In this document: in pieces, positions 3,535-25,827 of the stretch | How positions within the stretch are numbered: the stretch's first letter is position 1 | Layout: each line of letters starts with the position of its first letter | Assembly: GCA_020832905.1 (NCBI GenBank) | Contig: JAJHRG010000001.1 | Span: 564,940-628,939, forward strand | Reading direction: 5' to 3' | Length of the DNA stretch: 64,000 bases | Source: Thermoproteota archaeon | GTDB lineage: Archaea > Thermoproteota > Methanomethylicia > Methanomethylicales > Methanomethylicaceae | Made by a program: the position numbers and the translations under genes | Notes under the pieces: model-generated | Databases searched by the model: none | What the model saw: the letters and a program-made list of their open reading frames with translations, nothing else | Told to the model about the DNA's origin: nothing

Positions 3535-3708
3535 GTGTTAATCTTGGAAAGATATGGAGAATGTGAATTTACATATGAAAAATGTAAGAAATGTGGAAGA
3601 AACTTTTATACTAGAGTAGATTCTCCAAAAGAATATTGTCCAGATTGTGAAAAAATAATAGAACTTGAAATTTTAGAAAAAAGAAAAAAATCAAAGACTT
3701 CTCCTTAA
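3535..3708 (+). CDS. small zinc-ribbon protein (CxxC...CxxC), not in ORF track
   Basis: GTG/TTG-initiated 57-codon frame encoding ...CEFTYEKCKKCGRNFYTRVDSPKEYCPDCEK.... It has two CxxC knuckles and a Lys-rich tail. Its 3' end overlaps the stop of the convergent epimerase gene. Confidence 0.4.
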   Translation: MLILERYGECEFTYEKCKKCGRNFYTRVDSPKEYCPDCEKIIELEILEKRKKSKTSP

Positions 3709-4614
3709 CTCTATAGTAGCTTTTAAAGCTTTTTTAAAAGCTTCTTTTGCTTTTTCATTAGGAATAAAACTCAATTCTTTTCTTATTTTTTCATCATTTA
3801 ATATCCAATTACCAGTTAAGAAGCCAGGTCCTTTCCATTCTGAAGGATCTACTTCTATAATATTAGATTTTGATCCTGAAAGTTCAATAATCATTTCTAA
3901 AATTTCCTTCCAAGTAGTATTAAAACTTAAGATATTATATATCTTTCCAAAGGCATTTTTATTTAATAAAGCTAATTCAAATGCTTTTATTAAATCATTT
4001 ATATAAAGAATACTTCCTGCAGAACCTTTAGGTACATATAATACTTCATTTTTTAAAGCACTATCTATTATTTTTCTTAATGTCCCCCCTGGTATTCTTT
4101 CATCACTAAAAGCCCACCAAAATCTAAATATTGTAAATGGAAAACCTCTTTCTTTATAATATATTTCCATGGCTTTTTCTACTGCAAGTTTTGTAAGAGC
4201 ATGAGTTGGAGCTCTTGATTTTTCTACTAATAAAGGATGATCTTCTTTTATTGGAACAATAACAGGCTCTCCATAAATTACTGAGCTACTTGGAAATATT
4301 ATTTGCTTAACACCATACTGACAACATGCCTCAATAACATTTAAAAATCCAATAACATCAATTTTAAATCCATCTAGCATTTTTTCTGAAAATGACCATG
4401 CTGAATAGAATACAACATCACAACCATTTACTACATTTCTAACAGTATTTTCATCTTCTACTCCTCCAATTATGAATTTCATATTTGGATGTTCAAAGCC
4501 TTCTAATTCTCCTTTTGTTTTATCTAATACTATAACTTCATGATTTTTTTGAAGAAGTGCTTTTACTAGTCTACTTCCAACAAATCCTCCTCCACCAGTT
4601 ACTAAAATTCTCAT
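3691..4614 (-). CDS. NAD-dependent epimerase/dehydratase (extended SDR)
   Basis: N-terminal Rossmann motif MRILVTGGGGFVGSRL. 307 aa, typical of UDP-sugar epimerase/dehydratase family members. Confidence 0.85.
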   Translation of the reverse strand: MRILVTGGGGFVGSRLVKALLQKNHEVIVLDKTKGELEGFEHPNMKFIIGGVEDENTVRNVVNGCDVVFYSAWSFSEKMLDGFKIDVIGFLNVIEACCQYGVKQIIFPSSSVIYGEPVIVPIKEDHPLLVEKSRAPTHALTKLAVEKAMEIYYKERGFPFTIFRFWWAFSDERIPGGTLRKIIDSALKNEVLYVPKGSAGSILYINDLIKAFELALLNKNAFGKIYNILSFNTTWKEILEMIIELSGSKSNIIEVDPSEWKGPGFLTGNWILNDEKIRKELSFIPNEKAKEAFKKALKATIELRRSL

Positions 4615-4663: not shown

Positions 4664-6022
4664 TTGAAAATTTGGCAAGGAGTTGAAGTAGAATACTGTG
4701 TTCCATATATTAATAGAAAAAACTATGTTAATGAATTATTAGAATCACTAAGAAATTATAAAATGCCATTAAAAAATACATCTCCTTTTCTAATGAAAAA
4801 AGATGGAAAATATACACAATTTCTTATTAATGGTGGAAGAGCATATGGAGATATAAGCTTTACACCAGGTGTATATGATATTTTAGAAATAACAACTCCA
4901 GAATGTCCAAATCCATTTTATACTCTTGCATATGAAAAAGCAACAGAAGTTTATGCAAGAATAGCATCAGATGAATTTGAAAGAACATCAGGAATGAGAG
5001 TACATTGTTATAAAATAAGTGTAGTAAAATCTGAATATGAGTATACCACTAGAGGACTTCATGAAAGTTATTTAGTAGAAAGAAAAGCTTTTGAAAATAA
5101 AATTATGGAATTAATTCCTTATTTAGTTATAAGACAAATATTTACAGGAACTGGTGGATATTATTTTGGAAGATTTTTAATATCACCAAGACAAATGTTT
5201 ATAAAATCAGTAGTTGCTGAGAAAATATTTGGAAATTGGCCATTAATTGCAGAAAGAGATGAACCACATGCAGATCCTAAATACAAAAGATTGCAAATTA
5301 CAAATGGAGAAGGAGCAAGAACTGAATGGACAATATTTATGAGACAAGCAATAACATCATATATAATTAAAGCTATTGAACTTGGATTAATAAAAGAATT
5401 ACCAAGAATTAAAGATCCTATTGAAGCTGCAAAATTAATTGCTATATCTCCAGAAGGAGATTGGAGTTTAGAATTAGAAAATGGAAAAGAAATTAAAGCA
5501 TTAGAAATTCTTTCATATTATTTAGAAGGTATAGAAAAATTATTTATGAATGAAGAAATAGATGATTATGATAAATATGCATTAAAAGAATTTAAATTTG
5601 TATTAAATAAATTAGAAGAAGGAGATTTTGAATCATTAAAAAATAGAATAGAATGGATTGTAAAACTTGAAATTTTAGAAAATAATTTTAATAAATATTT
5701 TGAAGGAAATGGAAGCGAAGAAGAAAAAATTATTGCAAATAATCAATTTTGTGCAATAACAGATGGAACTTTTGAAAGAATACAAGAAGAAATGAACTTA
5801 ATTACATTATTAAAAGATGAAGATTTATCAAAAGCAGTTCTATTTCCACCAGAAAATTCTAGAGCATATGCAAGAATAAAAATTGCTCAAATTTTAAAAG
5901 ATAAATTAGATGATATTGGATGGTCTTATATTATTGTAAATAGTAATAGATATCATATGCTAGAATTAGATGGATGGAATGATGAAAAAATTTCAAAATT
6001 TTTAAATGAAATTATTTCTTAA
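4664..6022 (+). CDS. Pup-ligase/deamidase family protein (PafA-like paralog 1)
   Basis: 452 aa with a TTG start. Family blocks present: GVEVEY (GxExE[YF]), RAYGD, GLHESYLV (cf. PafA GCHENYLV), LIPYLVIRQIFTGTGG, ERDEPHADPKYKRLQITNGEG, KDPIEAAK and IEWIVK. Confidence 0.8.
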   Translation: MKIWQGVEVEYCVPYINRKNYVNELLESLRNYKMPLKNTSPFLMKKDGKYTQFLINGGRAYGDISFTPGVYDILEITTPECPNPFYTLAYEKATEVYARIASDEFERTSGMRVHCYKISVVKSEYEYTTRGLHESYLVERKAFENKIMELIPYLVIRQIFTGTGGYYFGRFLISPRQMFIKSVVAEKIFGNWPLIAERDEPHADPKYKRLQITNGEGARTEWTIFMRQAITSYIIKAIELGLIKELPRIKDPIEAAKLIAISPEGDWSLELENGKEIKALEILSYYLEGIEKLFMNEEIDDYDKYALKEFKFVLNKLEEGDFESLKNRIEWIVKLEILENNFNKYFEGNGSEEEKIIANNQFCAITDGTFERIQEEMNLITLLKDEDLSKAVLFPPENSRAYARIKIAQILKDKLDDIGWSYIIVNSNRYHMLELDGWNDEKISKFLNEIIS

Positions 6023-6093
6023 TTTATAACTCTATTTATAAGAAGTTTAAACATTTAAAAAAATTTTTATAATTTTAAGAATAATTTAATATT

Positions 6094-7665
6094 ATGAAAA
6101 TATTAAAAGAAATGGCAAGAGGTTGTGAATACGAATTTAGTGTAAATAGATATCCACCAATTCTTCCTGGTATTCAACTTTCAGATATTATAGGAAGAAC
6201 AATACTTGCATTAAAAAATTTAGGATTTATATCTAAAGTAATGTGGAGTGTAGAAGATGAAATTGGAAATTTAACTTATGAACGTGGTTTATTTGATTCT
6301 TGGTTATTTGCAGAAGGACCTTATGAAATTGCTTTTAATGGAATGAGAATATATGATGATGCTCAACATTTAGAATTTTCTACTCCAGTATTTAGAAGTC
6401 CAATTGATGCAGTAGTTTATGATAAAGTTGCTGAAAGATTAGCTTTTTTAGGAATAGAACAAATAAGAAAAACTCATGGAGAATTATATTGTTATAAAAC
6501 TAATAATAGTCTATTAAAAGGATCTTATGGTTATGAAGCAGTAGCATGGGGGACTCATGGATGTTATTGTGTTAGTAGAAGAATTTTTAATTTTGAAAAT
6601 TGGAAAAATGTAGAAAAAATTCTTATTCCCTTCATTATAAGTAGAATTCCATTAATTGGTAGTGGAGGAGTATTACCTATAAGAAATGAATTTTCATTTG
6701 AACCTCCAACAAGTTCAAGATTATGTGGTGATAAAATAATATATGTAATTTCACCAAGAGCAATTTATATAAAACAATTATCATCTATTGATACTACAGT
6801 AGATCGTGGATTTTTAAATCTAAGAGATGAACCACATGCTAATCCTAATAAGTATTGGAGATTACATGATATAAATTTTGAAGCAATAAGAAGTGATTTT
6901 CAAATATTTATTAGAGATGCATTAGAAGTTTTTACATTAAGAGCAATTGAAGAAGGATTATTACAAAATCCACCAATAATTAAAGATCCAATAGAAGCTA
7001 TAAGAAAAGTTTCAATGAATATAAATGAAATTGATCAATTTATTGAATTAGAAGGAAGTAATAAAGCAAGATTACTATCAGATATACTTTCATATTATAT
7101 TTCTGCAATTGAAAAACTAATAGAATTAAGAGGAGATAATGAAGACCATAAAGTTTTTAAGGTTATAGAAAGTGTAATTCAGAAACTAAAAGAAGGATTA
7201 TTTGAATATTTAAATGGAGCTATTGATTGGATTGCAAAAATGATGCTAATAGAAGAATATAATGCTAAAGATATGGATATGGCTATTATATGTAATCAAT
7301 ATGGATTATTAGATGAAAATACAGGTTTTTATGAAGGAAGAATAGAAAAAGGTGATACTTTATTTGATCCTGAATCTTCCTTAGCTTTTCTTGAAGAAGT
7401 ATTTCCTTTTGTAAAATCAATAAAAGAGAAAATAAAGTATGGTATGAATAATCCTCCTACAGATACTAGAGAATATTTAAGAACAAATATTTTAAAAGAA
7501 CATGAATCAGAAATAATAAAAATGAATTGGTGGAAAATTTACTTTAAAGGAGGTTTAATTACTTTAGATGAGCCATTAAGATATGGAAAAGAAGAAAGTG
7601 AAGAAATTTTAAAGATAAAAGACTTAAAAAAATTATCTGAAGTTATAAGAGGTGAAGCTAAATGA
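6094..7665 (+). CDS. Pup-ligase/deamidase family protein (longer, Dop-like paralog 2)
   Basis: 523 aa. Family blocks present: GCEYEF, RIYDDAQHLEFSTP, LIPFIISRIPLIGSGG, LRDEPHANPNKYWRLH, KDPIEAIRK and IDWIAKM. The H-E-N block is diverged (GTHGCYCV). It carries extra insertions and a longer C-terminus than paralog 1. Confidence 0.75.
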   Translation: MKILKEMARGCEYEFSVNRYPPILPGIQLSDIIGRTILALKNLGFISKVMWSVEDEIGNLTYERGLFDSWLFAEGPYEIAFNGMRIYDDAQHLEFSTPVFRSPIDAVVYDKVAERLAFLGIEQIRKTHGELYCYKTNNSLLKGSYGYEAVAWGTHGCYCVSRRIFNFENWKNVEKILIPFIISRIPLIGSGGVLPIRNEFSFEPPTSSRLCGDKIIYVISPRAIYIKQLSSIDTTVDRGFLNLRDEPHANPNKYWRLHDINFEAIRSDFQIFIRDALEVFTLRAIEEGLLQNPPIIKDPIEAIRKVSMNINEIDQFIELEGSNKARLLSDILSYYISAIEKLIELRGDNEDHKVFKVIESVIQKLKEGLFEYLNGAIDWIAKMMLIEEYNAKDMDMAIICNQYGLLDENTGFYEGRIEKGDTLFDPESSLAFLEEVFPFVKSIKEKIKYGMNNPPTDTREYLRTNILKEHESEIIKMNWWKIYFKGGLITLDEPLRYGKEESEEILKIKDLKKLSEVIRGEAK

Positions 7666-7757
7666 GTGATATTTTACCATCTTTTAAGAAAAAAGAAAAA
7701 GTAGATAAAAAGTTAAAAAAAGAACATGCTGAACTTATTGCTCCACCTGGTGAATAA
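7662..7757 (+). CDS. 31-aa Lys-rich peptide ending Gly-Glu; candidate Pup/UBact-like modifier
   Basis: Sequence MSDILPSFKKKEKVDKKLKKEHAELIAPPGE. The ATG overlaps the TGA of the upstream gene (ATGA). A GAGGTGA SD ends 6 nt upstream, the same motif and spacing as before other genes in the window. It is too short for the ORF track. Confidence 0.55.
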   Translation: MSDILPSFKKKEKVDKKLKKEHAELIAPPGE

Positions 7758-7893: not shown

Positions 7894-8193
7894 TTGGGGG
7901 TTCTGGTGCCAGAAATAATACTTCGTATAAAAACATCTGATATTAAAGGCAATATAGGTCTTCTAAATCCACAAGATTTATCAAAACTTGGTGCAAAGGA
8001 AGGAGATGAAATAGAATTGTATTCAACTTCAAGAGCATGGACTATAAAGACAAAATCTGATTCTTCAGTACCTATAGGAGAAGTAAGAGTAAGCACAGAC
8101 GTTCTGAGAAGACTTGATGTAGAAGATGGAAGTGAAGTAAGAGCTTATTGGGCTCCTCCAGTAGTAGAAGAAAAATATGAACCCCCACCATGA
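7894..8193 (+). CDS. stand-alone double-psi-beta-barrel-like protein (Cdc48/VAT N-domain or FwdD-like)
   Basis: 99 aa. The pattern ILRIK..D.....GLLNPQDLSKLGAKEGDEIEL....R.W......D..VP.GEVRVS.DVLRRLDVEDGSEVRA matches the Cdc48_N/VAT-N repeat signature. It has a Pro-rich tail. Its stop lies 9 nt before the OFOR gamma-delta gene. The start may be GTG at 7906. Confidence 0.5.
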   Translation: MGVLVPEIILRIKTSDIKGNIGLLNPQDLSKLGAKEGDEIELYSTSRAWTIKTKSDSSVPIGEVRVSTDVLRRLDVEDGSEVRAYWAPPVVEEKYEPPP

Positions 8194-8202
8194 GGTGAGA
8201 TT

Positions 8203-9264
8203 TTGGCTATATTTGCAGTTGAATTTGATGGAAGAGGTGTAACACAAACTGCATTAATGAGAGCTGCTAGTGAAATCATTTGTACTGCTGCAGATAAGGA
8301 TGGATTTCCATCAATTGGATATGAAAGATACGATGATGCTCCTGATAGAGTTGGTGTACCAATTAAAGGATTTTCAGTAATATCAAGAACAGCTCCCGCT
8401 TCATATGAAAAAGATTTAGAAGATGTTGCAGTTGATGTTGAAAAACTTAGTCCTCCAACACCAGATTACTCATATTATCAAGTATGCTATGATGAATTAG
8501 CACCTGAAGCAATGCTATATGAGCCAAGAGCTGTAGATGCTGTACTAGTACTAGATGATACTTTAGTAAAAGGAGAAGAACCATGGGCTTATATAGGAGT
8601 ACAACCAATACATGAGAAATTAAAAGATGGAGGAGCAATAATAGTAAATAGTAAAAGAGATCCAGAATATCTTTTAGAATTTATTCATCCAACAACTAAA
8701 AGATATAAATTAGCAGTTATTGATGCAGATTCTATGGATAAAATAATTATATTACCATTAATAGGTGCTATGCTAAAAGTAGCTCCTGGTATTGTTTCAT
8801 ATAGATCAGTTATTGCTACTGTAAAGGAAAGATATAAAGCTGAAGGAATAAAGAAAGCACAAGTAATAAAAGATGCTTATAATAAAGTAAGATGGATAGA
8901 AGTTCCACCTGCTAAAGAACCAATACAAATAAAGAGAAAGAGAAAATTCCTTGAAGAATTTCCAAAATGGCATGAAATGCCTATAGGTCTTGTAGTTCCT
9001 GCACCTCCAGTAAATGGTCCAAATCCACACTTCAAAACTGATACATTTAGGACATATAGACCTGTAACAGATACAAGTAAGTGTAATAAAGATGGATTAT
9101 GTTGGTTATATTGTCCTGATTCTGCTAGAAGTCCAGATCCAGAGACATTTTTTGCTGTAAATCTTGAATATTGTAAAGGTTGTGGTATTTGTGCTGAAGT
9201 TTGTCCTGTTAAAGCAATTAAAATGGTTAATGAATTAGATTTTAGAGGTGAGAAATTATGGTAA
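8203..9264 (+). CDS. 2-oxoacid:ferredoxin oxidoreductase, fused gamma-delta subunit
   Basis: 353 aa with a TTG start after a GAGGTGA SD. The C-terminal part has two 4Fe-4S motifs (CNKDGLCWLYCP, CKGCGICAEVCP) typical of the delta subunit. The N-terminal ~250 aa is gamma-sized. Confidence 0.75.
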   Translation: MAIFAVEFDGRGVTQTALMRAASEIICTAADKDGFPSIGYERYDDAPDRVGVPIKGFSVISRTAPASYEKDLEDVAVDVEKLSPPTPDYSYYQVCYDELAPEAMLYEPRAVDAVLVLDDTLVKGEEPWAYIGVQPIHEKLKDGGAIIVNSKRDPEYLLEFIHPTTKRYKLAVIDADSMDKIIILPLIGAMLKVAPGIVSYRSVIATVKERYKAEGIKKAQVIKDAYNKVRWIEVPPAKEPIQIKRKRKFLEEFPKWHEMPIGLVVPAPPVNGPNPHFKTDTFRTYRPVTDTSKCNKDGLCWLYCPDSARSPDPETFFAVNLEYCKGCGICAEVCPVKAIKMVNELDFRGEKLW

Positions 9265-10448
9265 GAGTTATAACAACTGGAACTGTTGCAATTGCAACTG
9301 CTGTTAAACATGCAGATGTTGATGTAATATCTGCATATCCAATTAGACCATATACAGGAGTAATGAATGAATTAGCAAGAATGATTGCTGATGGAGAATT
9401 AGATGCAGAGTTCATTGTATGTGATTCAGAACATACACAATTTGAAATTGCAAAACATGCTGCAGCATGTGGTGCAAGAGTATTTACTGGTAGTGCAGGT
9501 ATTGGATGGGCATATGCTCATGAAGCTATTGTTGTTACACCAACAGATAGAGTTCCAGTAGTTGCAATGGTTGGAAATAGAGCATTAGATGATCCAGGAA
9601 ACTTTGGTGTAGAACATACAGATGTTTTAGTTGCAAGAGATTTAGGATGGATGATGTGCTGGCCTGAAAATCCACAAGAAGCTTATGATTTAACATTAAT
9701 GGGTTATAAGATTGCTGAAAATCCTAATGTGCTATTACCATATATAGTAAATTGTGATGGAAACTTTATTACTCATGTAAGATTTCCAGTAGATCTTCCT
9801 GATGAAGAACTTGCAAGAGAATTCTTACCACCAACTCCACCACCAAGACCAAATATACTACATCCAGATAAACCAATATCTATAGCTCCACATGTAGACT
9901 ATTACTGGGGAACTGAAATAAGAAGACAAATGGATCAAGCAATGAAGAATGCTATTGAAGTAACAAAAAGAGTTCATGAAGAATTTAATAAGATATTTGG
10001 TAGAGGAGGACCTCCATTTATTGAAGAAATTAATACAAAAGATGCTGATGTTGCTATGATAGGAGTAGGCGGAATGACAATGGTAGCAAGAGCAGCAGTA
10101 AGAGAATTAAGACAAAAGGGAATAAATATAGGTTTTGTAAAGCTTAGAAGATTTAGACCATTTGCTACTGAAGAAATAAGAGAAGCTTTAAGGAAATTTA
10201 AAGTAGTTGCTGTATTAGATAATGACTTCTCATTTGGATCTGCACATTGTGGAGGAATATTATTCCAGGAAATTCGATCTGCTTTATATGATCTATCTGA
10301 AAGACCAATTGTTGTTAATTACTTAATTGGACTTGGTGGAAGAGAAATTACTGTTGATGCAATGAAGAGAATTGGTAAGGAGATATATGAAATATCAAAG
10401 ACAAAAGAAGTTAAACATATAGTTAAATGGGTTGATGTTAGGGAGTGA
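9258..10448 (+). CDS. 2-oxoacid:ferredoxin oxidoreductase alpha subunit
   Basis: 396 aa. The opening ...AVKHADVDVISAYPIRPYTG... is typical of POR/VOR/KOR alpha. It overlaps the upstream gene and has a GAGGTGA SD. Confidence 0.88.
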   Translation: MVRVITTGTVAIATAVKHADVDVISAYPIRPYTGVMNELARMIADGELDAEFIVCDSEHTQFEIAKHAAACGARVFTGSAGIGWAYAHEAIVVTPTDRVPVVAMVGNRALDDPGNFGVEHTDVLVARDLGWMMCWPENPQEAYDLTLMGYKIAENPNVLLPYIVNCDGNFITHVRFPVDLPDEELAREFLPPTPPPRPNILHPDKPISIAPHVDYYWGTEIRRQMDQAMKNAIEVTKRVHEEFNKIFGRGGPPFIEEINTKDADVAMIGVGGMTMVARAAVRELRQKGINIGFVKLRRFRPFATEEIREALRKFKVVAVLDNDFSFGSAHCGGILFQEIRSALYDLSERPIVVNYLIGLGGREITVDAMKRIGKEIYEISKTKEVKHIVKWVDVRE

Positions 10449-11382
10449 TAATATGAGTTGGGAGAAGATAGAAATAAGAACACTTAAAGATGTTCCTAAA
10501 GAGGAATATTATGTAGCAGGACATAGAACATGTCAAGGATGTGGTCCTGCTCTTGCATGTAGATTAATAGCAAAAGCTGCAGGTCCAAGAACTGTATGTA
10601 TTGTTGCTACTGGATGTATGTATGTAGCAAATAGTAGTTATAATACAACTCCATGGGCAATACCATGGATGCATGCACAATTAGGAGGAATAGGCTCAGC
10701 AGTAGCTGGTGCAGCAGCTGCATTTAAAGCTATGATGAGAAAAGGAAAAATAAAGAAAGAAGAAATTCATGTTTTAGGAATTGCAGGAGATGGTGGTGCT
10801 GCAGATATAGGTCTTTCAGCTATATCTGGTGCTATGCTATCAGGTGGTGATCACTTAATAATTACATATGATAATGAATCTTATGCAAATACTGGAATTC
10901 AAGCTTCAAGTTTAACTCCATGGGGTGCTTGGACAACATTTACTCCTCCAGGAAAAATGTTAAGACTTGGAAATGTAAGAGTTAAAAAAGATTTACCAAG
11001 AATGATTGCTGCAGGACATCCTAATGTACGCTATGTAGCAACTGCAAGTATATCATTTCCATTTGATTTAATGACAAAAGTAAGAAAAGGATTAGCTGTA
11101 AAAGGTCCAGCTTTTATACAAATTCATACACCATGTCCTAAGGGATGGAAATTCCCACCAGAATTAACCATAAGAATAGGTAGATTAGCTGTAGAAACAG
11201 GAATGTGGACATTATATGAAGTTGAAGATGGACAATTTAGATTAACTTTCAAGCCTCCAAAGAGAAAACCAGTATCAGAATACTTAAAACTTCAAGGAAG
11301 ATTTGCTCACTTAAGAGAACCAGATATTAGATATATACAAGAACAAGTAGATGCTGCTTGTAAGCAATTAGGTATTGACTAA
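10432..11382 (+). CDS. 2-oxoacid:ferredoxin oxidoreductase beta subunit (TPP-binding)
   Basis: Carries CQGCG, the GDGGAADIG TPP motif and YDNESYANTG. The real start is more likely the ATG at 10453 (MSWEK...), which is preceded by AGGGAG. Confidence 0.88.
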   Translation: MMLGSDNMSWEKIEIRTLKDVPKEEYYVAGHRTCQGCGPALACRLIAKAAGPRTVCIVATGCMYVANSSYNTTPWAIPWMHAQLGGIGSAVAGAAAAFKAMMRKGKIKKEEIHVLGIAGDGGAADIGLSAISGAMLSGGDHLIITYDNESYANTGIQASSLTPWGAWTTFTPPGKMLRLGNVRVKKDLPRMIAAGHPNVRYVATASISFPFDLMTKVRKGLAVKGPAFIQIHTPCPKGWKFPPELTIRIGRLAVETGMWTLYEVEDGQFRLTFKPPKRKPVSEYLKLQGRFAHLREPDIRYIQEQVDAACKQLGID

Positions 11383-12526: not shown

Positions 12527-13207
12527 ATGAAAGTCACATTATTAACTTATACACCTAATCCTGAAAAAGTTATAGCAATAGCTGCAAGACAATGTCATTC
12601 TAAATTAAGTGCTACTGAAATAGCAGAAAATATTAAAGATGAAGATATTGAGAGAATAATAAGAATGGTAATAGAAAGAGGACATCTTTCTGTACTTGAA
12701 CATGCATATTTTACTTTTGCTATAGAAGGAGTATCAAGAGCATGTACTCATCAATTAGTAAGACATAGAATTGCATCATATTCTCAGCAAAGTCAAAGAC
12801 ATGTAAGAATTGAAGAAGATTTCATAATACCAGATACTATTAAGAAAAATGAAAAAGCAAAAAAGATATTTAATGATACTTTAGAATTATGTAAAAAATC
12901 CTATAAAGAGTTAATAGAAATGGGAATACCATTAGAAGATGCAAGATATATTTTACCACAAGCATCTCCTACAAAGATTATAGTAACAATGAATGCAAGA
13001 GCACTTTTAAATTTCTTTGAATTAAGATGTTGCTTAATGGCACAATGGGAAATAAGAAGAGTTGCTGAAGAAATGTTATCTTTAGTTAAAAAAGTAGCTC
13101 CTCATGTATTTGAAAAAGCAGGACCATTTTGTGTTACAAAAAACATATGTCCAGAAAAAAAATATGATTGTCCAAAATGGATTGAAATTCATAAATTAAG
13201 TAAATAA
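12527..13207 (+). CDS. thyX: FAD-dependent thymidylate synthase
   Basis: ThyX signature RHRIASYSQQSQR (RHRxxSxxxxSxR), plus the LEHAYFTF block. Confidence 0.92.
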   Translation: MKVTLLTYTPNPEKVIAIAARQCHSKLSATEIAENIKDEDIERIIRMVIERGHLSVLEHAYFTFAIEGVSRACTHQLVRHRIASYSQQSQRHVRIEEDFIIPDTIKKNEKAKKIFNDTLELCKKSYKELIEMGIPLEDARYILPQASPTKIIVTMNARALLNFFELRCCLMAQWEIRRVAEEMLSLVKKVAPHVFEKAGPFCVTKNICPEKKYDCPKWIEIHKLSK

Positions 13208-13849
13208 TGATTTTACAGCATCTATACAACCCTCTCGAACAATCATGTCTAGTACATAATCAGGCTGAATAATAACTGATGGTGAAAATGGAATATATCT
13301 TCCATCTTTATCTCTTATTCTAATTATCATCCAAGATTCTTTAAGAGGAAGATCTTCTATTTTTTTACCAATTACTGGAGCATCTTTTCCTACTTTTATT
13401 TGTATTCTTCTTACACCAACATAAGGAATACGCTCTTCTATCTTTCCAGAATAGCCTCTTATAAGTTTAGAAATTTTTTCTGCTACTGCCTCTTCTGGAC
13501 ATATTATCTCAGAAATACCAAGCTTATGGGCAATTCTTGATAATCTTGGATCACTTACTCTTGCTATTACTTTTTTTACACCCATTTCTTTTGCTAAAAG
13601 ACATCCTAGTATATTCTTTTCATCATCTCCAGTTACACAAATAAAAACATCATATTCCTTAGGATTTATATTTTCAAGATCATCTATACTAGTAACATCA
13701 CCTTTAAAAACAAGAACATCATATTCATTCGAGATTTCTTTACATATATCTTCATCAAGATCCATTACTGCAATATCATGATTGTCTTCTTTTAATTCTC
13801 TAATAAGTGTCTTTCCTACTCTTCCTGCACCAACAATAATTATCCTCAT
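13196..13849 (-). CDS. trkA: Trk-type K+ uptake NAD-binding subunit
   Basis: MRIIIVGAGRVGKTL Rossmann motif, RCK N- and C-domains, 217 aa, divergent from trkH. Confidence 0.85.
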   Translation of the reverse strand: MRIIIVGAGRVGKTLIRELKEDNHDIAVMDLDEDICKEISNEYDVLVFKGDVTSIDDLENINPKEYDVFICVTGDDEKNILGCLLAKEMGVKKVIARVSDPRLSRIAHKLGISEIICPEEAVAEKISKLIRGYSGKIEERIPYVGVRRIQIKVGKDAPVIGKKIEDLPLKESWMIIRIRDKDGRYIPFSPSVIIQPDYVLDMIVREGCIDAVKSLFT

Positions 13850-13895
13850 ACTTAATTTAAGTAAAAAATTAAAAAATTAATATTTTTTACTAATA

Positions 13896-15353
13896 GTGAT
13901 AATAATGATAAAAGAAGAATATAATGAAATTATCTCTGGAATTGTAGGAATATTGATAATTTCAGGTATTATAATGTTAATTCCAATTATTCCCTTAGTG
14001 GTATATAGTGAGTATGCTCAATTGCCTTTCTTTTTATTTTCCTCCATCATCTTATTAATAATAGGAGGATATTTCTATAGAAAATACCCCCTTCCTGAAG
14101 ATATTACAATGAAATCTGCAATTGTTATTGCTAGTATTGCTTGGCTTTTAATATCACTAATTGGAACAATACCATACTTAAGTATAGGTATGAATATTAT
14201 TGATGGATTTTTTGAATCAATGAGTGGATTTACTACAACTGGTATGACATTAATTAGTGTTTTGGAAATATGTCCAAGATCTATATTATTTTGGAGGAGC
14301 TTAAGTGAATGGATTGGAGGAATTGGAATAATCTTTCTTTTTACAATATTATTAAAAGGAAGTATAGGTACATGGAAATTATATAGAATTGAAGGAAGAG
14401 AAAAATTTACAATAAGTGTAAAAGAAAGTATAAGAAATATAATGATTATATATACAACTTTAACTATAGTTTGTACAATTTTATTATATTTAAGTGGATT
14501 AGATGTTTTTGATTCAATAAATCATGCAATGACAACCATTTCTACAGGAGGATTTTCTACAAAAACAGATAGTATAACTAACTTCAGTATCTTGACAAAA
14601 ATAATAATAATTATGTTTATGATAATTGGTGCAATTGATTTTGCATTAATTAATGAAATTATAAAACTTAAGATAAAAAAAGTAATAAGCGATCCTGAAT
14701 TCAAAGCCTTTATATTTATAATCATAATTAGTATTTTATTAGTTTACATATTGAATTCAAAGGAAATGAGCTTTAGCATAAATGAATTATTTAATACAAT
14801 ATCAATAGTAACTACAACTGGCTATACAAGTGGTGATATACTTTTATGGCCTAATTCCACTAAGGTTTTACTATTAATACTTATGACAATAGGTGGATGT
14901 GCAAATTCAACTGCAGGAGGAATAAAAGTATGGAAATTATTAATACTATTCAAACTTTTAAGAAGAGAATTAAAAAGACTATTGTTACCTCCTTCTATAA
15001 TAATGCCTATAAAGATAGGAGATAAAACATTTGATGATGAATATTTAATTAAAATATGTACTTTCTTCTTTAGCTATATAGTACTAATATTCATAATCTT
15101 CTTATTACTAAGTATTAATATTCCTGATACATTTGGAGCGTTATCATTAGCCATTTCTTCTATTAATAATATAGGACCTGCTTACTATCCTATTGATAAG
15201 CTTGATTTATTTTCAAAAATAATATTAATAATTAGTATGTGGATGGGTAGACTTGAATTATTTCCAGTAATGGCTTTTATTTTTGAATTCATTCCAGAAA
15301 CTTTTAAAAATATATTATCAAGAAGATTTAGAAAGGAGTACGAGTATACTTAA
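13896..15353 (+). CDS. trkH: Trk/Ktr-type K+ transporter membrane subunit
   Basis: 485 aa and polytopic. Repeated selectivity-filter-like MSGFTTTGM, STGGFST, TTTGYT and NIGP blocks. Confidence 0.82.
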   Translation: MIIMIKEEYNEIISGIVGILIISGIIMLIPIIPLVVYSEYAQLPFFLFSSIILLIIGGYFYRKYPLPEDITMKSAIVIASIAWLLISLIGTIPYLSIGMNIIDGFFESMSGFTTTGMTLISVLEICPRSILFWRSLSEWIGGIGIIFLFTILLKGSIGTWKLYRIEGREKFTISVKESIRNIMIIYTTLTIVCTILLYLSGLDVFDSINHAMTTISTGGFSTKTDSITNFSILTKIIIIMFMIIGAIDFALINEIIKLKIKKVISDPEFKAFIFIIIISILLVYILNSKEMSFSINELFNTISIVTTTGYTSGDILLWPNSTKVLLLILMTIGGCANSTAGGIKVWKLLILFKLLRRELKRLLLPPSIIMPIKIGDKTFDDEYLIKICTFFFSYIVLIFIIFLLLSINIPDTFGALSLAISSINNIGPAYYPIDKLDLFSKIILIISMWMGRLELFPVMAFIFEFIPETFKNILSRRFRKEYEYT

Positions 15354-16590
15354 AAATTTCACAATATTTTTCATTTAATTTTAAATTTCCTACTTGTATG
15401 AGAGAAATATCATCACTTACTGGTGTTATTATTTTCATTTTTCTTTCTTCATAATTTATTTCTGATATTATTCCAAGTCCTAAGAATTTTCCATTATCTT
15501 TATAAAGACCAACAATTATTCCTTTTTCAGAACCTTTCTTTATAGCAATTAATTCATCACAAATTTTTTCTTTATTTGTTATATTTGGTTCATCTTCAGT
15601 TACTAAAAATAAGAATTTTCCATTAGTTTCTCCATAAAGTATTTTTAAGCATAATTCTTTACTTAGTTTTTCTAATAATTCTTTTGATAATGGATTACCA
15701 TAAGTATAATAAGAACATATAATTTTTGTTGATTTTAAATCTATAATTCTTTCCTTACTATTAGCAAAATATTTACTATATGCATTTTCACGTTTTTCTT
15801 TTCTTTCTTCTCTACTTCTTATTCTTGATGCTGATGAAGATGTTATTCTTATTACATTTTCAAAATTTCTTATTATATGTTCTAATTCATTTCCTTTTTG
15901 AATTGCAATAATAAAATCAGGAGAAATTATTTGAATTAATGAGCATTTATATTCTCTTGCATATATACCATTAACCCATCCACATGTATTTATAATGATT
16001 ATATCAGCATTATTATTTAAAGCATTATCAACAAGCTTTTTAGCACTTACTATCATTTTCATTGGAGCATCAGATGGTGTAGTTGTTCCAATAAATATTG
16101 CATCAGTTAATGGAATTTTATCCATAGAAATAATTGTATTATTTAAAAAGCCATAACCAATAGTTGTTGGTAATGATATTTCAGCTTGTCCTGGATCTAA
16201 ATCAATAACAGCAACTTTCATTCCATACTGAAATGCTATATTTGCTAAATATACTGAAAAAGTTGTTTTACCACTATCTGTATCTCCTATTACCATAACC
16301 TTTATTGGAGGTTTACTTTTAATTATTTTTTCAACAGCATCTTTCCAGCATAAAGGTATAGGATTAGGGATTTCTTTTATACATGCATTACTTCCAAGAT
16401 TAATTTCAATAAGTGAATCTTCTAGTACTTCTACTGGTATAGATTTTCCTTTTGGTATTATTATTTCCTCTCCTAATGTAACAGATTTTCCTAAAGCTAA
16501 AATTTTTCCATTACGTAAGCATAAATATGCAGGACCATATACTACAAAAGAGGACATTTTTGTTAAGTTCATTTGCAACAAATAATACAC
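15328..16590 (-). CDS. Clp1/Grc3-like polynucleotide 5'-hydroxyl kinase (archaeal type)
   Basis: P-loop VMVIGDTDSGKTTF preceded by a beta-rich N-domain, with a Walker B-like IDLDPGQ. The start may be the internal MSSFVVYGP at 16557. Confidence 0.6.
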   Translation of the reverse strand: MYYLLQMNLTKMSSFVVYGPAYLCLRNGKILALGKSVTLGEEIIIPKGKSIPVEVLEDSLIEINLGSNACIKEIPNPIPLCWKDAVEKIIKSKPPIKVMVIGDTDSGKTTFSVYLANIAFQYGMKVAVIDLDPGQAEISLPTTIGYGFLNNTIISMDKIPLTDAIFIGTTTPSDAPMKMIVSAKKLVDNALNNNADIIIINTCGWVNGIYAREYKCSLIQIISPDFIIAIQKGNELEHIIRNFENVIRITSSSASRIRSREERKEKRENAYSKYFANSKERIIDLKSTKIICSYYTYGNPLSKELLEKLSKELCLKILYGETNGKFLFLVTEDEPNITNKEKICDELIAIKKGSEKGIIVGLYKDNGKFLGLGIISEINYEERKMKIITPVSDDISLIQVGNLKLNEKYCEIFKYTRTPF

Positions 16591-16633
16591 CCAAATAATA
16601 GATTAAATATTCTATTTGCTTAAAAAATAAACG

Positions 16634-17065
16634 GTGATTTTTTTGAAAATTGAAGAAATTGAAAATGCTATTTTATCTTTTGTTAAAGAAAGAGGAAAAG
16701 TAAGTTATGAAGAAATTGAAAAATGGGCAGAAAAAAATAATATTGGATCATATACCTTAAGAATTATATTAAATGATTTAATAAAAAGAAAGTCTTTAGA
16801 AGCACCTGATGGTTTTTATGATGAGGAATCTTATATAGAACCACCTAGACCAAAATCAATTGTATTAGCATCATCAGATTATGAAAAATTAAAAGAATAT
16901 TTAAAAGAATATAAAAGTATAGGAATATTGAGATTTTTTGATGATTTAATAAAAATGGGAATAAAAGATGTAAATGAATTATTGAGAAGAGCAATAAAAG
17001 AAGGTTATGCTGAACTTACTCCATCTGGTGTTGTAAATGCTACTGAAAAGCTTTTTAAGAGCTAA
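16634..17065 (+). CDS. hypothetical protein (winged-helix-like N-terminus)
   Basis: 143-aa ORF divergent from the Clp1-like gene. No strong motif. Confidence 0.45.
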   Translation: MIFLKIEEIENAILSFVKERGKVSYEEIEKWAEKNNIGSYTLRIILNDLIKRKSLEAPDGFYDEESYIEPPRPKSIVLASSDYEKLKEYLKEYKSIGILRFFDDLIKMGIKDVNELLRRAIKEGYAELTPSGVVNATEKLFKS

Positions 17066-17109
17066 AAGAATAAGAAATTAAAGATAAGAATAGTGCTATT
17101 GGTGGGAAA

Positions 17110-17445
17110 ATGTCAGAAAGTAAAATAGTTGGAGGAGTATTTAGTGGAACTGCAAAAATTGGAGAAATACTTGATACATTTATGCAATTAACATTAACTC
17201 CTCAAGATATTACTAGTCCAATTGCATTACAAATGGCATTAAGTAGAATTTATGAGACAATGACAAAAGCTTTAACAAAAGGTCCAAAAAAGAAGTATAT
17301 AGCTGAAGTAAGATTTACTGATGCTTTAGGAAATCCTGTAGTTATTGGTTTAGATTTAGGAGAAAAATTACCACCATTTACAAGTAATGAAGTAAAAGCA
17401 AGAATAATAATAGAACTTTTTGAAGAACAACATCAAAATCCTTAA
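17110..17445 (+). CDS. hypothetical protein
   Basis: 111-aa ORF preceded by GGTGGG. No motif recognised. Confidence 0.45.
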   Translation: MSESKIVGGVFSGTAKIGEILDTFMQLTLTPQDITSPIALQMALSRIYETMTKALTKGPKKKYIAEVRFTDALGNPVVIGLDLGEKLPPFTSNEVKARIIIELFEEQHQNP

Positions 17446-17474
17446 TATCTTCCAGTTAAACTGAGAGATATTTT

Positions 17475-18101
17475 TTATAGTTTACTAAGCAATTCCTTAA
17501 GATTACTTATAGTATTACAAGAGCATAATTTTCCACTTCTATCTAAGTGAAATGCAATTACTCCTGCTTTTCTTGCATTAATATAATCAAGTTCATAACT
17601 ATCTCCAATATGAATCATTTCTGAAGGTATTAATGAAAGATAATTACAAATTTTCAAATAAACCCAACTTTCTTTAATACTATGAAAATCAGAAATTGTA
17701 GAAAAAATATAGGAAAAGTATTTCCTTATAGGTTCTGTTGTTATTTCTAAAAATAATCTTGCTGAATTAGATATAATAATTAGCTTATATTTTTTTACTA
17801 ATTCCTCAAGTACTTCAATTACCTCAGGATATAAAGTTACTAAATGTTTATATTTACTTAAAAGTTCTTTTGCATTTATATTAAGTCCATATTTATTTAT
17901 CCAATAATCAATATCATACCATTCTAATCTTTTTGGTCCAATTTCATTATAATCATTATATAGTTTTTCTTTAGCCTCCTTGATAGATATATTATGATGT
18001 TTTGCTACTAATTCAGGTAAAACTTCAAGCCATATAGTATCAGCAAATAAAGGTGTAACTAATGTACCATCTACATCAAATGATATTACTTTAATTTTCA
18101 T
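17475..18101 (-). CDS. HAD-superfamily hydrolase
   Basis: Motif I ISFDVDGTL, motif II IISNS, motif IV GDSYELD. Confidence 0.85.
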   Translation of the reverse strand: MKIKVISFDVDGTLVTPLFADTIWLEVLPELVAKHHNISIKEAKEKLYNDYNEIGPKRLEWYDIDYWINKYGLNINAKELLSKYKHLVTLYPEVIEVLEELVKKYKLIIISNSARLFLEITTEPIRKYFSYIFSTISDFHSIKESWVYLKICNYLSLIPSEMIHIGDSYELDYINARKAGVIAFHLDRSGKLCSCNTISNLKELLSKL

Positions 18102-18125
18102 AAATTCAACAAAAATAAGGAAAAA

Positions 18126-19985
18126 TTAAAGCTTTTCTAATTCCTTAGCAACATCTTCTAATCCTATTTTTATTAATTTTTCTTTTGTTGGAATTCCTGT
18201 TCTTTTATCCCATCCTTTTAAAGTATAGAAATCATCTAGCATTTTATTTAATGTTTGTTCATCTGTATACATACCTTTAGATGGTCCTTCAGGTATAGGC
18301 TCTTCTAAAAATCTTCTTGGTAAAGTATCATCTTTTCTTCTTATTCCTGTTCTTACATTAAATGCTCTTTCTAGATCTAAAATTCTTTCTGCTACTTCTA
18401 CAAGTTCTTCAAATTTATAATTAAAACCTGTAACAATATTTATCATTTCTACATATTTTGGATTTAATGTAAATCCAAGTAGTCTTTCTAAGAAGTGACA
18501 TATAATCATAGAATCACCTATTGTAGTAAATTGCATTGTTCCTATTACCCATGCTGCTTTTCCTTCTACAGCTTTTCTATCTGAAGCTCCTGCATATTCA
18601 CCTGTTGGTCTTGGATCATGATGACTTCCACCTCTAGATGCAACTGCATATCCTAATGCCATTCCTCTTAATGCTCTAGCAGAATGACCAGGTATTTCTA
18701 AGCCTTTAACTTGTATAGCAAATCTTTCAGATCCTTTTCCTATAATTCTAGCTGCTCTTAATGATCCTTCAGCAATTAAATCTCCTATTCCTATTCTTTT
18801 TGCAGTTTTTTCAATTAGATCTATTACTGCATCATCATTACCAAATTTTAATTCAATACCTCCTGTAAAGTTCTTATCTATAAGTCCTTTTTCATAACAT
18901 TCCATTAGGAAAGAAATAGTAACACCACAGGATACTGTATCCATACCATATTCATCACATAAACTATCTGCTTTAATAATAGCTCCTCCATCACTTATAC
19001 CACACATAGAACCAAAAGAATAAAGTGTTTCATAATCTGGTCCTTCTGAAATTGCTCCTTTCCACTTACCTTCTTTTACACTAAATATCTTACTACAAGC
19101 AATTGGACATGCTGGACATGCCATATCCTTATCCCAATATTTCTTTTTTAATGTTTCACCACATATTCCTTCCCATCCTTCAAAATATTCAGTTTGATGA
19201 TTTCTTGTTCCCATAGCTCCAAATATATTATTTATAGAAGAAACTAGTGAAGGTGTTCCATAAGTTGGTAATATTGATGAAATTCCAGGAACTTTCTTTG
19301 ATTCTTCATTATACCATTTTAACCAGTTTTCTAATCCTTCAGGATCTGCTACTTCATTTGTACCTGAACCTCTTACAGCTATTGCTTTAAGTCTTTTAGA
19401 ACCCATTACTGCTCCTAATCCGCCTCTTCCAGCAGCTCTATATTCAGTAATAATACATGCATATCTTACAAGATTTTCTCCAGCAGGACCAATAGCAGAA
19501 ACACTTATTGTTGGATCACCTATTTCTTCTTTAATCATTTCTTGTGTTTCACTTGTTAGTCTACCCCATAATCTTTCTGCACTTCTAAATTCAATTTTAT
19601 CATCATCAATGAAAATGTAAATAGGCTTTTCAGCTCTACCAGTTATTAATATTCCATCATAACCAGCATATTTTATTTGAGCTCCCATATGACCTCCACT
19701 AATACTATCAAAGAAGCCATTTGTAAGAGGAGATTTAGAAGCTACATGATATTTTCCTGATGTTGGTATGTATATTCCTTGAAATGGACCTGTCATTATT
19801 GATATTACATTTGTAGGATCAAAAGCATCAATTCTTGGATCTATCATATCAAATAATAGTCTTGCTGAAAAACCATTTCCTCCTAAGTATTTTCTTGCAA
19901 ATTCATCAGTTATTTCTAAAATAGAAGTTTTCTTTGTTGTTAAATTTATCATTAATATTTTTCCTTTATAACCAAAATATTTCAT
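18126..19985 (-). CDS. aor: tungsten-type aldehyde:ferredoxin oxidoreductase family enzyme
   Basis: 619 aa. AOR N-domain (ILMINLTTKK...YLGGNGF), Cys cluster ACPACPIACSK, and pterin-binding blocks (GLEIPGHSARA, GGSHH). Confidence 0.9.
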   Translation of the reverse strand: MKYFGYKGKILMINLTTKKTSILEITDEFARKYLGGNGFSARLLFDMIDPRIDAFDPTNVISIMTGPFQGIYIPTSGKYHVASKSPLTNGFFDSISGGHMGAQIKYAGYDGILITGRAEKPIYIFIDDDKIEFRSAERLWGRLTSETQEMIKEEIGDPTISVSAIGPAGENLVRYACIITEYRAAGRGGLGAVMGSKRLKAIAVRGSGTNEVADPEGLENWLKWYNEESKKVPGISSILPTYGTPSLVSSINNIFGAMGTRNHQTEYFEGWEGICGETLKKKYWDKDMACPACPIACSKIFSVKEGKWKGAISEGPDYETLYSFGSMCGISDGGAIIKADSLCDEYGMDTVSCGVTISFLMECYEKGLIDKNFTGGIELKFGNDDAVIDLIEKTAKRIGIGDLIAEGSLRAARIIGKGSERFAIQVKGLEIPGHSARALRGMALGYAVASRGGSHHDPRPTGEYAGASDRKAVEGKAAWVIGTMQFTTIGDSMIICHFLERLLGFTLNPKYVEMINIVTGFNYKFEELVEVAERILDLERAFNVRTGIRRKDDTLPRRFLEEPIPEGPSKGMYTDEQTLNKMLDDFYTLKGWDKRTGIPTKEKLIKIGLEDVAKELEKL

Positions 19986-19991
19986 ATTTTA

Positions 19992-20423
19992 TCACCCTGA
20001 TAACCAAACTAATGTTAGTGCATTTTTTGGACAAGATTTAATACATTGAAATTCTCCATTACATGTATCACAAATTATTGGTTTTTTTGTTTCAGGATGA
20101 AGCTTTATTCCATGAAATGGACATGCTTCAATACATTTACCACAAGAATTACAAAGCTTTTCATCTACAACTATATTTCCATTAATATAAGATAATGCTT
20201 TTGTTGGACATGCTTTTATACAAAACTTCTTTTCACATCTTGTACATATGAAGTACTTAAGAGTTTTTATTCCTCTACGAACAATAGTAATTCTTGATAT
20301 AGAGGCACCATACTTACCATAATGGTATTTTGCACATACAAATTCACAAATTTTACAAAAACAGCATTTTTGAGGATCAAATCTTATAAATGGTTTTTTC
20401 TGTTGTGCAATTACTATGCTCAT
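19992..20423 (-). CDS. polyferredoxin (four Cys-cluster motifs)
   Basis: 143 aa with four CxxCxxC(x)nCP-like motifs. It lies immediately upstream of, and is co-oriented with, the AOR gene. Confidence 0.8.
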   Translation of the reverse strand: MSIVIAQQKKPFIRFDPQKCCFCKICEFVCAKYHYGKYGASISRITIVRRGIKTLKYFICTRCEKKFCIKACPTKALSYINGNIVVDEKLCNSCGKCIEACPFHGIKLHPETKKPIICDTCNGEFQCIKSCPKNALTLVWLSG

Positions 20424-20532
20424 TGCTTACACCTTATTTATAAAAAGTAAGAGGTGGTTTTATTTAATTTTTTTGAAAAAAGAAAATATTTATATAATAA
20501 TTCATACTGTCATTAAGTATTGTGGTGATATA

Positions 20533-21768: not shown

Positions 21769-21783
21769 ATCTTTTTTATTTTT

Positions 21784-22527: not shown

Positions 22528-22613
22528 AACTAATAAAAAAGTATTTATTAATGAATACAAAATTTAAAGAATAATGTGTGTTTATTTAGAATTAGTAGTA
22601 TTGAGGGCTCATT

Positions 22614-24789: not shown

Positions 24790-24820
24790 TTTTTTAAGTA
24801 AGTATGATTTTTATAAAATT

Positions 24821-25804: not shown

Positions 25805-25827
25805 GAAAAAAGAGGGAGAGCAAATGG

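Follow-up and report, generated by a model that had tools for sequence, protein, structure and literature searches.

Organization of the locus and its small candidate modifier

The stretch of DNA analysed here, referred to below as the window, comprises 64,000 nucleotides from a Thermoproteota archaeon of the Methanomethylicaceae (assembly GCA_020832905.1, contig JAJHRG010000001.1, positions 564,940 to 628,939 of the forward strand). It is AT-rich, with a GC content of approximately 27%, and three tightly packed genes on its + strand span 4664-7757: two paralogous members of the Pup-ligase family, paralog 1 (P1) and paralog 2 (P2), and an open reading frame (ORF) of 31 codons that encodes a candidate protein modifier. 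Judged from its sequence, this cassette resembles bacterial pupylation in an archaeal form that has not been described before, and P2, the Dop-like member of the pair, is the gene with which this analysis is chiefly concerned. The features of the cassette are as follows.

4664..6022, + strand: P1, 452 aa with a TTG start; loop-less Pup-ligase-family protein, candidate ligase
6094..7665, + strand: P2, 523 aa; Dop-like Pup-ligase-family enzyme, candidate deconjugase/deamidase
7650..7655, + strand: Shine-Dalgarno-like AGGTGA within the end of P2, 6 nt 5' of the modifier start codon, read from the sequence
7662..7757, + strand: candidate modifier ('mini-Pup') MSDILPSFKKKEKVDKKLKKEHAELIAPPGE, 31 aa

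Membership of both paralogs in the Pup-ligase/deamidase family PF03136 is certain and is already present in automatic annotation. The Pfam Pup_ligase model matches P1 with 203 bits and P2 with 184.2 bits against a cut-off of 25, and their homologs are named "proteasome accessory factor PafA2 family protein" by NCBI and JGI. P1 and P2 share 32% identity over 354 aa. An initial annotation of the window had described ORFs of 523 and 452 aa together with a number of motifs and inserts, and all of these are indeed present. Homologs are found in Candidatus Methanomethylicia (Verstraetearchaeota), in Bathyarchaeota and in a Methanosarcinales metagenome-assembled genome (MAG), and the P1-P2 pair also occurs, among the matches listed, in a bacterial MAG of Candidatus Tectomicrobia (L006).

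The modifier ORF is real. Its ATG overlaps the stop codon of P2 (ATGA), P2 being translationally coupled to it, and TAATAA and a T-rich tract lie directly 3' of it. A modifier gene adjoins a Pup-ligase-family gene in the window and on 11 other contigs, and lies directly 3' of P2 in the window and in eight other loci if L091 is counted. Eight related loci carry a clear member of the family: in seven of them it lies directly 3' of P2, and in the eighth, L005, it is found upstream of P1; in the ninth, L091, the ORF after P2 encodes 91 aa ending in SGE and has little else in common with the mini-proteins. A profile search, built with a 47-aa member placed first, recovered 47 clusters of 30-63 aa, mostly 30-48 aa, every one of which ends in [AS]P[PS]G[EQ] (Glu in 42, Gln in 5), with the family consensus LFPSFKKRELKRGK..I+KEH+.VVAPPG[EQ]. 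The window copy is lysine-rich, with eight K/R and six D/E among its 31 residues. Pfam searches with four members of the family gave no match even at E<=10, the Pup family PF05639 included.

The initial annotation had reasoned that a modifier already ending in Glu needs no deamidase. The window copy does end in Gly-Glu, but the conclusion does not extend to the family: since 5 of the 47 clusters end in Gln, and such tags lie behind P2-family genes, a deamidase is needed in some lineages. In one of these loci (L092) the Gln-ending tag overlaps the stop codon of a gene that scores 656 bits with the P2 profile and 177 with that of P1, and no P1 is adjacent; a second contig has a Gln-ending tag in the same layout behind a Pup_ligase gene of 548 aa. 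Dop, too, is kept beside Glu-ending Pup, for in the 64 actinobacterial loci in which dop and pup were both recognised, among the matches listed, Pup ends in Glu in 33 and in Gln in 31. In 52 of the 64 pup directly follows dop, an order that is matched by that of P2 and its tag.

An alternative for the cassette as a whole is that it does not tag proteins, the mini-protein serving instead as a carrier like LysW, or as a precursor peptide, and P1/P2 ligating its C-terminal Glu to a small-molecule amine for use in metabolism or in natural-product synthesis. A length of 27-48 aa, a composition that is lysine-rich rather than acidic and the lack of a Pfam match to Pup would suit such a role, in most loci neither a proteasome gene nor an unfoldase gene is seen, and an NAD-dependent epimerase/dehydratase and a 2-oxoacid:ferredoxin oxidoreductase operon adjoin several of them; the wider superfamily, moreover, includes ligases of small amines (PMC2588565). 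We nevertheless regard this alternative as improbable. Both enzymes match Dop and PafA along their full length, C-terminal domain included, and this domain contributes to the groove in which Pup binds. In two divergent loci (L088 and L091) the pair has AAA+ ATPases at its side, the metabolic neighbours are not kept beyond related lineages (L005, L086, L087, L089 and L092), and LysW systems use ATP-grasp ligases rather than enzymes of the Pup-ligase fold.

Active site and Dop-like characters of P2

Active-site residues were compared in a four-family alignment of P1, P2, Dop and PafA, comprising P2 and 22 relatives (n=23, identity down to 32%), P1 and 20 relatives (n=21), and 26 Dop and 23 PafA sequences taken from the actinobacterial dop loci among the matches listed in a contig profile search. 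Residues are numbered as in A. cellulolyticus Dop (AcelDop), except where those of P1 or P2 themselves are named. The roles of individual residues were mapped from structural work on Dop (PMC8599861), and the positions that discriminate Dop from PafA were taken from Hecht et al. 2020 (PMC7947786). The features within P2 are listed below.

6121..6135, + strand: GhExE nucleotide/Mg motif, G10-C-E12-Y-E14; E12 and E14 correspond to Dop E8 and E10, invariant in 23/23
6238..6327, + strand: Dop-loop-like insert VMWSVEDEIGNLTYERGLF..., aa 49-78, approximately 30 aa, before strand beta2; absent in P1 and PafA
6337..6387, + strand: catalytic strand NGMRIYDDAQHLEFSTP, with R85, Y87, D89 (catalytic Asp), H92 and E94, and with S96-T97-P98 of the Dop type
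6550..6573, + strand: GTHGCYCV block, aa 153-160; Mg ligand H155 kept in 23/23, E156 changed to G and N157 to C
6682..6735, + strand: P2-specific insert RNEFSFEPPTSSRLCGDK, aa 197-214; absent in P1, longer than the loop of Dop and PafA, a beta-hairpin in the model
6751..6846, + strand: SPR...DTT...R...RDEPHA segment; R222, R238 and R244 correspond to R205, R221 and R227, followed by H248
6856..6885, + strand: WRLHDINFEA block, aa 255-264; R256 (R239) and H258 (H241, Mg/phosphate ligand) kept
7570..7662, + strand: C-terminal tail EPLRYGKEESEEIL..., which aligns with the Dop tail MEPLRGTRELTEEIL... and lengthens P2 over P1

The P2 family has kept all residues with a documented catalytic or metal-binding role in Dop, which are also universal in the 26 Dop and 23 PafA sequences. 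The Mg ligands E8, E10, Y92, E99, H155 and H241, the catalytic D94, the nucleotide/phosphate arginines R90 and R227, and R205 and T217 are each found in 23/23 sequences, and the residues of the P2 catalytic strand correspond to Dop R90, Y92, D94, H97, E99 and S101-P103, all of them invariant in P2. In Dop, T217 forms a hydrogen bond to the last residue of Pup and R227 holds the catalytic phosphate (PMC8599861). Also kept in 23/23 are H97, R221 and R239, which are universal in Dop and PafA and have no documented role; no role for any of these three, or for E156, was found in PMC8599861. As this catalytic set is invariant while the identity among relatives falls to 32-43%, the active site of P2 must be under strong purifying selection.

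Two conspicuous blocks had been described in the initial annotation as diverged, and the changed residues are real; the conserved His and Arg residues within them, on the other hand, have not diverged, as H155 is kept in the first block and R239 and H241 in the second. Position 156 is unconstrained in the P2 family, since the residue varies there (G in 10 sequences, Y in 4, S in 4, and others), while position 157 is N, S or C and position 245 is aromatic. The changes V242 to D, G245 to F and D246 to E are signatures of the P2 clade, in which D259, N261 and E263 are invariant. These five positions (E156, N157, V242, G245 and D246) are invariant in the 26 Dop and 23 PafA sequences, yet they are not documented catalytic or metal-binding residues. 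By simple strand alternation, positions 156 and 242 would be expected on the back face of the sheet. Thus the divergence of the motifs at these two blocks does not, on this alignment, mean a loss of activity, and P2 is intact and probably active.

We also observed that the Glu following the Mg-ligand His, which is invariant in Dop, PafA and P1, is lost in P2 (G156-C157, 6559-6564), and that the Val following H241 is replaced by an Asp that is invariant in P2 (D259, 6868-6870). The loss of Glu156 and the gain of Asp259 may compensate each other.

It had been suggested that P2 might be an inactive partner, and a catalytically dead, regulatory P2 in a heterodimer with P1 would account for two adjacent paralogs in a superfamily in which some carboxylate-amine ligases are dimeric (PMC2588565; compare the heterodimers proposed by Iyer et al. 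2008), and for a P2 that differs at the five positions named above. This is very improbable: every Mg ligand of Dop, the catalytic D94, R90, R205, T217 and R227 are invariant in distant relatives, and none of the five positions that differ has a documented role as a ligand, two of them lying by expectation on the back face. It is instead very likely that P2 is an active enzyme that works on the terminal Glu or Gln of the tag.

The greater length of P2, which the initial annotation had pointed out, is accounted for in the four-family alignment by the insert at aa 49-78, by the two inserts that had been named (NNSLLKGSYGYEAVAWG at aa 137-153, and RNEFSFEPPTSSRLCGDK), by a third insert ENTGFYEGRIEKGD at aa 408-421 and by the C-terminal tail. 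The first of these inserts, which makes up a large part of the added length, is a homolog of the Dop-loop. In both MAFFT and hhalign alignments its residues W-S-V-E-D-E-I-G-N-L-T-Y-E-R-G-L-F align with W-D-Y-x-x-E-D-P-L-x-D-A-R-G-F of Dop, with the highest confidence at the W..E columns, and the motif in P2 can be written W..E.E...RG[FL]. Further Dop-type characters are the Ser-Thr-Pro after E99 and an acidic residue and TT in the alpha-loop (D233-T234-T235, equivalent to E216-T217-T218, within 6751..6846); the P2 alpha-loop reads YIKQLSSIDTTVD, unlike the PafA signature H.WEG.SSA..RS. At the discriminating positions in Table 1 of Hecht et al. 2020, P2 is Dop-like at V31 (I), S101, P103, F208 (Y), E216 (D), L215 (I) and L219 (V), PafA-like at G214 (S), and of neither type at S27, L80, A81, V93, H95, A96, E210, V211, E212 and K220.

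Overall similarity also places P2 nearer to Dop than to PafA, whether by NCBIfam models (176.4 versus 120.7 bits), by phmmer against the PDB (106.5 versus 48.1 bits) or by hhalign of profiles (467 versus 333), so that the suggestion of a Dop-like P2 has held up. An AlphaFold2 model of P2 (pLDDT 92.1, pTM 0.94) has the glutamine-synthetase-like beta-sheet cradle and the helical C-terminal domain, and Foldseek matches it to Dop with E=1e-27, a TM-score of 0.82 and a root-mean-square deviation (rmsd) of 4.1 A; matches to PafA are at 1e-21 or weaker, with an rmsd of 5.5-9.8 A. Dop and PafA structures take all of the first 11 places among the PDB matches of the model, and YbdK, glutamate-cysteine ligase and glutamine synthetase come next.

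P1, the origin of the pair and the proposed roles

P1 carries GLHESYLV (aa 131-138) and KRLQITNGEG (aa 208-217) where P2 has its two changed blocks, and on this basis it had been taken for the paralog that keeps the active site. The residue-mapped alignment shows the opposite, as the canonical sites are invariant in P2 and carry substitutions in P1. The catalytic D94 is kept in 14/21 P1-family sequences, a Bathyarchaeota-type subclade reading YVHS there; R90 is kept in 17/21, and R227 and H241 in 13/21 each, R227 being Ile or Val in the P1 of close relatives of the window organism and H241 being Gln211 in the window P1. H97, T217 and R221 are replaced throughout the family. However, P1 is not a decayed gene, because the five other Mg-ligand positions (E8, E10, Y61, E75 and H133 in P1) and R205 and R239 are kept in 20-21/21. 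The alignment equates R221 with PafA R201, a residue that forms a salt bridge to the one at Pup's C-terminus (PMC8599861). P1 has no Dop-loop, and after the catalytic Asp it has an insert of 7 aa where PafA has 1 aa; its losses of the loop, T217, R221 and H97 are consistent with the loose hold on the last residue of the tag that has been described for the ligase. In overall similarity P1 is nearly equidistant from Dop and PafA (NCBIfam 157 versus 145.2 bits; hhalign 407 versus 415), and Foldseek matches its AlphaFold2 model (pLDDT 92.7) about as well to Dop (4e-28) as to PafA-Pup (3e-26).

The difference in size between the two paralogs had been compared with that between PafA and Dop. The parallel is real, but it does not reflect orthology, as P1 and P2 group apart from both. 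Under three distance corrections, neighbor-joining trees separate (P1, P2) from (Dop, PafA) with 100% support from 200 bootstraps, and a tree of 161 sequences that includes diverse bacterial homologs has the same split with 83-86% support; P2 accordingly clusters with P1 and not with PafA. Signature columns, judged by the consensus of each family, number 5-9 for an arrangement in which P1 equals P2 and Dop equals PafA, 1-3 for P1 with PafA and P2 with Dop, and 0 for the third arrangement. Likewise, hhalign scores Dop against PafA at 867 and P1 against P2 at 509, P1 and P2 being each other's best match. This placement rests on distance and parsimony-like methods, in which long-branch attraction is possible. 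The equivalog models agree in that P2 scores 176.4 bits against a Dop cut-off of 492.3 (TIGR03688), and P2 (120.7) and P1 (145.2) both fall below the PafA cut-off of 551.3 (TIGR03686). Orthology of P2 with Dop was therefore rejected on the trees and the signature sites, which make P2 a functional analogue of Dop rather than an ortholog. The simplest reading of the sequences is a separate duplication, after which P2 would have kept ancestral Dop-like characters and P1 would have lost the loop in parallel with PafA.

We favour the reading that P2 is a deconjugase/deamidase and P1 the ligase, and assign it a probability of roughly 55%. In the proposed mechanism the beta-sheet cradle of P2 would, like that of Dop, receive the C-terminal ...APPG-E/Q tail of the mini-protein encoded beside it, with ADP and phosphate (from ATP) and Mg2+ held by E12, E14, Y87, E94, H155, H258 and R244. 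Asp89 could then bring about cleavage of the gamma-amide of the tag's last residue, as its counterpart does in Dop. In this way P2 would remove the tag from the lysines of modified proteins and, in lineages whose tag ends in Gln, would deamidate it and enable its conjugation, while P1 would be the ATP-dependent ligase that joins the terminal Glu, by its gamma-carboxylate, to lysines. It is from the analogy with Dop and PafA that we infer the catalytic direction of each paralog, the lysine targets and any connection to degradation by a proteasome or AAA unfoldase. Experimentally, the Dop-loop and the alpha-loop have been shown to favour hydrolase over ligase activity, and deletion of the first together with replacement of the second suffices to turn Dop into a ligase (PMC7947786).

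Several points weigh against this assignment. The direction of catalysis is not readable from sequence. As the trees pair P1 with P2, and P2 is not an ortholog of Dop, its Dop-like characters may be ancestral retentions, and so need not mark a hydrolase. Nor would the loop alone prove hydrolase function if single-copy homologs of Planctomycetes, which partly keep the Dop-loop (PMC7947786), act as ligases, as we assume. The Dop-loop motif is shortened in Bathyarchaeota-type P2, and the alpha-loop of P1, which reads FIKSVVAEKIFGN, is not helical in its model, unlike that of PafA. P2 has clade-specific changes at positions that are invariant in Dop and PafA, one of which, the aromatic residue in place of Gly245, is expected by strand alternation to face the active site. 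Finally, a canonical site that is strict in P2 and variable in P1 would also be expected if P2 were the indispensable ligase.

The main alternative is that the roles are reversed or merged, with P2 as the main ligase, or as a bifunctional deamidase-ligase able to use the Gln-ending tag directly, and P1 as a derived accessory, whether deconjugase, specialised ligase or regulator. The conservation of the canonical site in P2 and its variation in P1 would follow from such an arrangement, and so would the P2-family gene of L092, which has a Gln-ending tag and no adjacent P1. A mutant of Dop that retained the loop was able to pupylate directly with PupQ and ATP, and the single-copy Planctomycete homologs are in part loop-bearing (PMC7947786). 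In the Bathyarchaeota-type loci, in addition, P2 has no Dop-loop motif and its P1 partner has no catalytic Asp. On the other side, enzymes with the wild-type loop, the T217 clamp and Ser-Thr-Pro have been hydrolases wherever tested (PMC7947786, PMC8599861), P1 keeps most of its metal-binding site together with R205 and R239, and the pair is kept together in the window and in nine further loci with both flanks visible. We consider a reversal or merging of the roles unlikely, although it is the most serious competitor to a hydrolase P2 and a ligase P1.

Genomic context and comparison with known systems

The surroundings of the cassette vary between lineages. Divergent from P1 in the window is an NAD-dependent epimerase/dehydratase gene (3691-4614, - strand); the same neighbour is found in L001 and L002 and is absent from more distant loci, and this neighbourhood is probably lineage synteny. 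On the other side lies a 99-aa ORF (7894-8193, + strand) with weak matches to Molydop_binding and CDC48_N barrels and the C-terminus ...EEKYEPPP; its place upstream of the operon for 2-oxoacid:ferredoxin oxidoreductase (8203-11382) is conserved. This operon has the opposite orientation to the Pup-ligase pair in L002, where a 98-aa gene adjoins it at the matching position, the comparison being one of placement. As the 98-aa gene travels with the inverted operon, the 99-aa ORF seems to belong to the oxidoreductase operon, and it was rejected as a part of the tag system. Further away, a 226-aa ORF (12527-13207) has a translation that is ThyX-like by eye, and the genes among 15328-16590, 18126-19985 and 20416-27417 encode a P-loop protein of the Clp1 type and an aldehyde:ferredoxin oxidoreductase, together with a cluster for branched-chain amino acids (HMGL-like/LeuA, acetolactate synthase and ketol-acid reductoisomerase); the genes from 12527 to 27417 are an ordinary archaeal housekeeping context. 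A 904-aa protein (28553-31267, + strand) with AAA domains and a Lon_C proteolytic domain is an archaeal Lon-like protease, 21 kb from the cassette. Scans of the window for tRNA genes and Rfam families gave no matches, and a sigma-70 promoter scan of it stayed below the shuffle expectation, this being a bacterial model that does not apply to an archaeon.

The more distant loci differ from the window in several respects. In two Bathyarchaeota-type loci (L086, 1122-4320, and L087, 8001-11493) the partners co-vary: P1 lacks the catalytic Asp and R90, reading NGGVCYVHS, and P2 has a truncated Dop-loop that lacks W..E.E. An inserted DUF3795 gene separates P1 from P2 in L087. The Methanosarcinales MAG (L088, 2305-5916) encodes, in this order, an AAA ATPase, a P1-like and a P2-like protein, and the N-terminus of the ATPase is charged, heptad-like and, by eye, coiled-coil. 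L091 (3-5670) encodes an ATPase with two AAA domains, a P2-like protein, the 91-aa protein ending in SGE and a P1-like protein. The mycobacterial gene order is mpa-dop-pup...pafA, and the order in L091 is colinear with it. A GC-rich contig (L005, 6480-9617, GCA_041642995.1) carries the tag gene upstream of P1, and the tag terminates in Gly-Gln. The presence of the pair on contigs that look bacterial (L005 and L006) suggests a transfer between domains, in one direction or the other.

Protein tagging in archaea is attributed to beta-grasp small archaeal modifier proteins (SAMPs) or ubiquitin-like proteins. Pupylation, by comparison, has been described as bacterial and mainly actinobacterial (including PMC2588565 and PMC7947786), and in the literature on archaeal Pup/PafA/Dop, PafA2 and UBact we found no description of this cassette, of paired archaeal Pup-ligase genes or of the mini-tag, though subscription journals were mostly outside the coverage and such an absence is no proof. 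A wider and more tentative reading, to which we give somewhat less than an even chance, is that Methanomethylicia, Bathyarchaeota, some Methanosarcinales and a few bacteria such as the Tectomicrobia MAG run a pupylation-like tagging system, with an enzyme pair that arose by a separate duplication, one loop-bearing and one loop-less, and with a lysine-rich tag of approximately 30-40 residues, unrelated to Pup, which possibly feeds AAA+ unfoldases or the archaeal proteasome. If so, protein tagging through gamma-glutamyl-lysine bonds would be extended to archaea. There would also be a second, apparently independent split of hydrolase and ligase within the Pup-ligase fold, with which experiments that convert Dop to PafA could be compared, and a very short natural tag with its enzyme pair would be available for proximity labelling of the PUP-IT type. 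What stands out is the archaeal setting, the apparently independent split of ligase and hydrolase, and the minimal tag.

The closest known relative of P2 in its characters is Dop (TIGR03688; PDB 4B0R, 7OXY and 9CKU). The fold is the same, with TM-scores of 0.82-0.85 by the length of the Dop chain and 0.63-0.75 by that of the query, and the two share GhExE, the catalytic Asp, the Mg ligands, R205, T217, R227, the Dop-loop, Ser-Thr-Pro and the C-terminal tail, as well as a gene position directly upstream of a small ORF with a G[EQ] C-terminus. They differ in that identity is only approximately 23-31%, the host is an archaeon, P2 has three extra inserts, groups with P1 and is changed at E156, N157, V242, G245 and D246, and its partner tag is half the length of Dop's Pup and unrelated to it in sequence. 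With PafA (TIGR03686; PDB 4B0T and 4BJR), P2 has in common the family, the fold and the metal and nucleotide residues. It is P1, not P2, that shares with PafA the absence of the Dop-loop and the insertion just after the catalytic Asp, although the alpha-loop is helical in PafA and not in the P1 model, and the PafA signature residues L63, G66, S67, A72, H188, W190, R199 and S200 are absent in both paralogs.

The tags are, like Pup and UBact, small, encoded beside a Pup-ligase-family gene and terminated by Gly-Glu or Gly-Gln, their sequences having been compared with that of Pup alone. Pup has 50-90 residues (Iyer 2008, PMC2588565), whereas the archaeal tags have 27-48, are lysine-rich and lack the acidic helical ...LDEID.VLE.NAE.FV..YVQKGG[QE] region of Pup. 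Comparison can also be made with the single-copy homologs of Planctomycetes and other non-actinobacterial groups (Iyer 2008; Hecht 2020), which branch deeply outside the Dop and PafA clades and are partly loop-bearing, and of which P0048 and others like it have the RLHDI motif in common with P2. Those homologs, however, are single genes, some of them with transmembrane inserts, while the system described here consists of a loop-bearing and a loop-less enzyme in a conserved pair.

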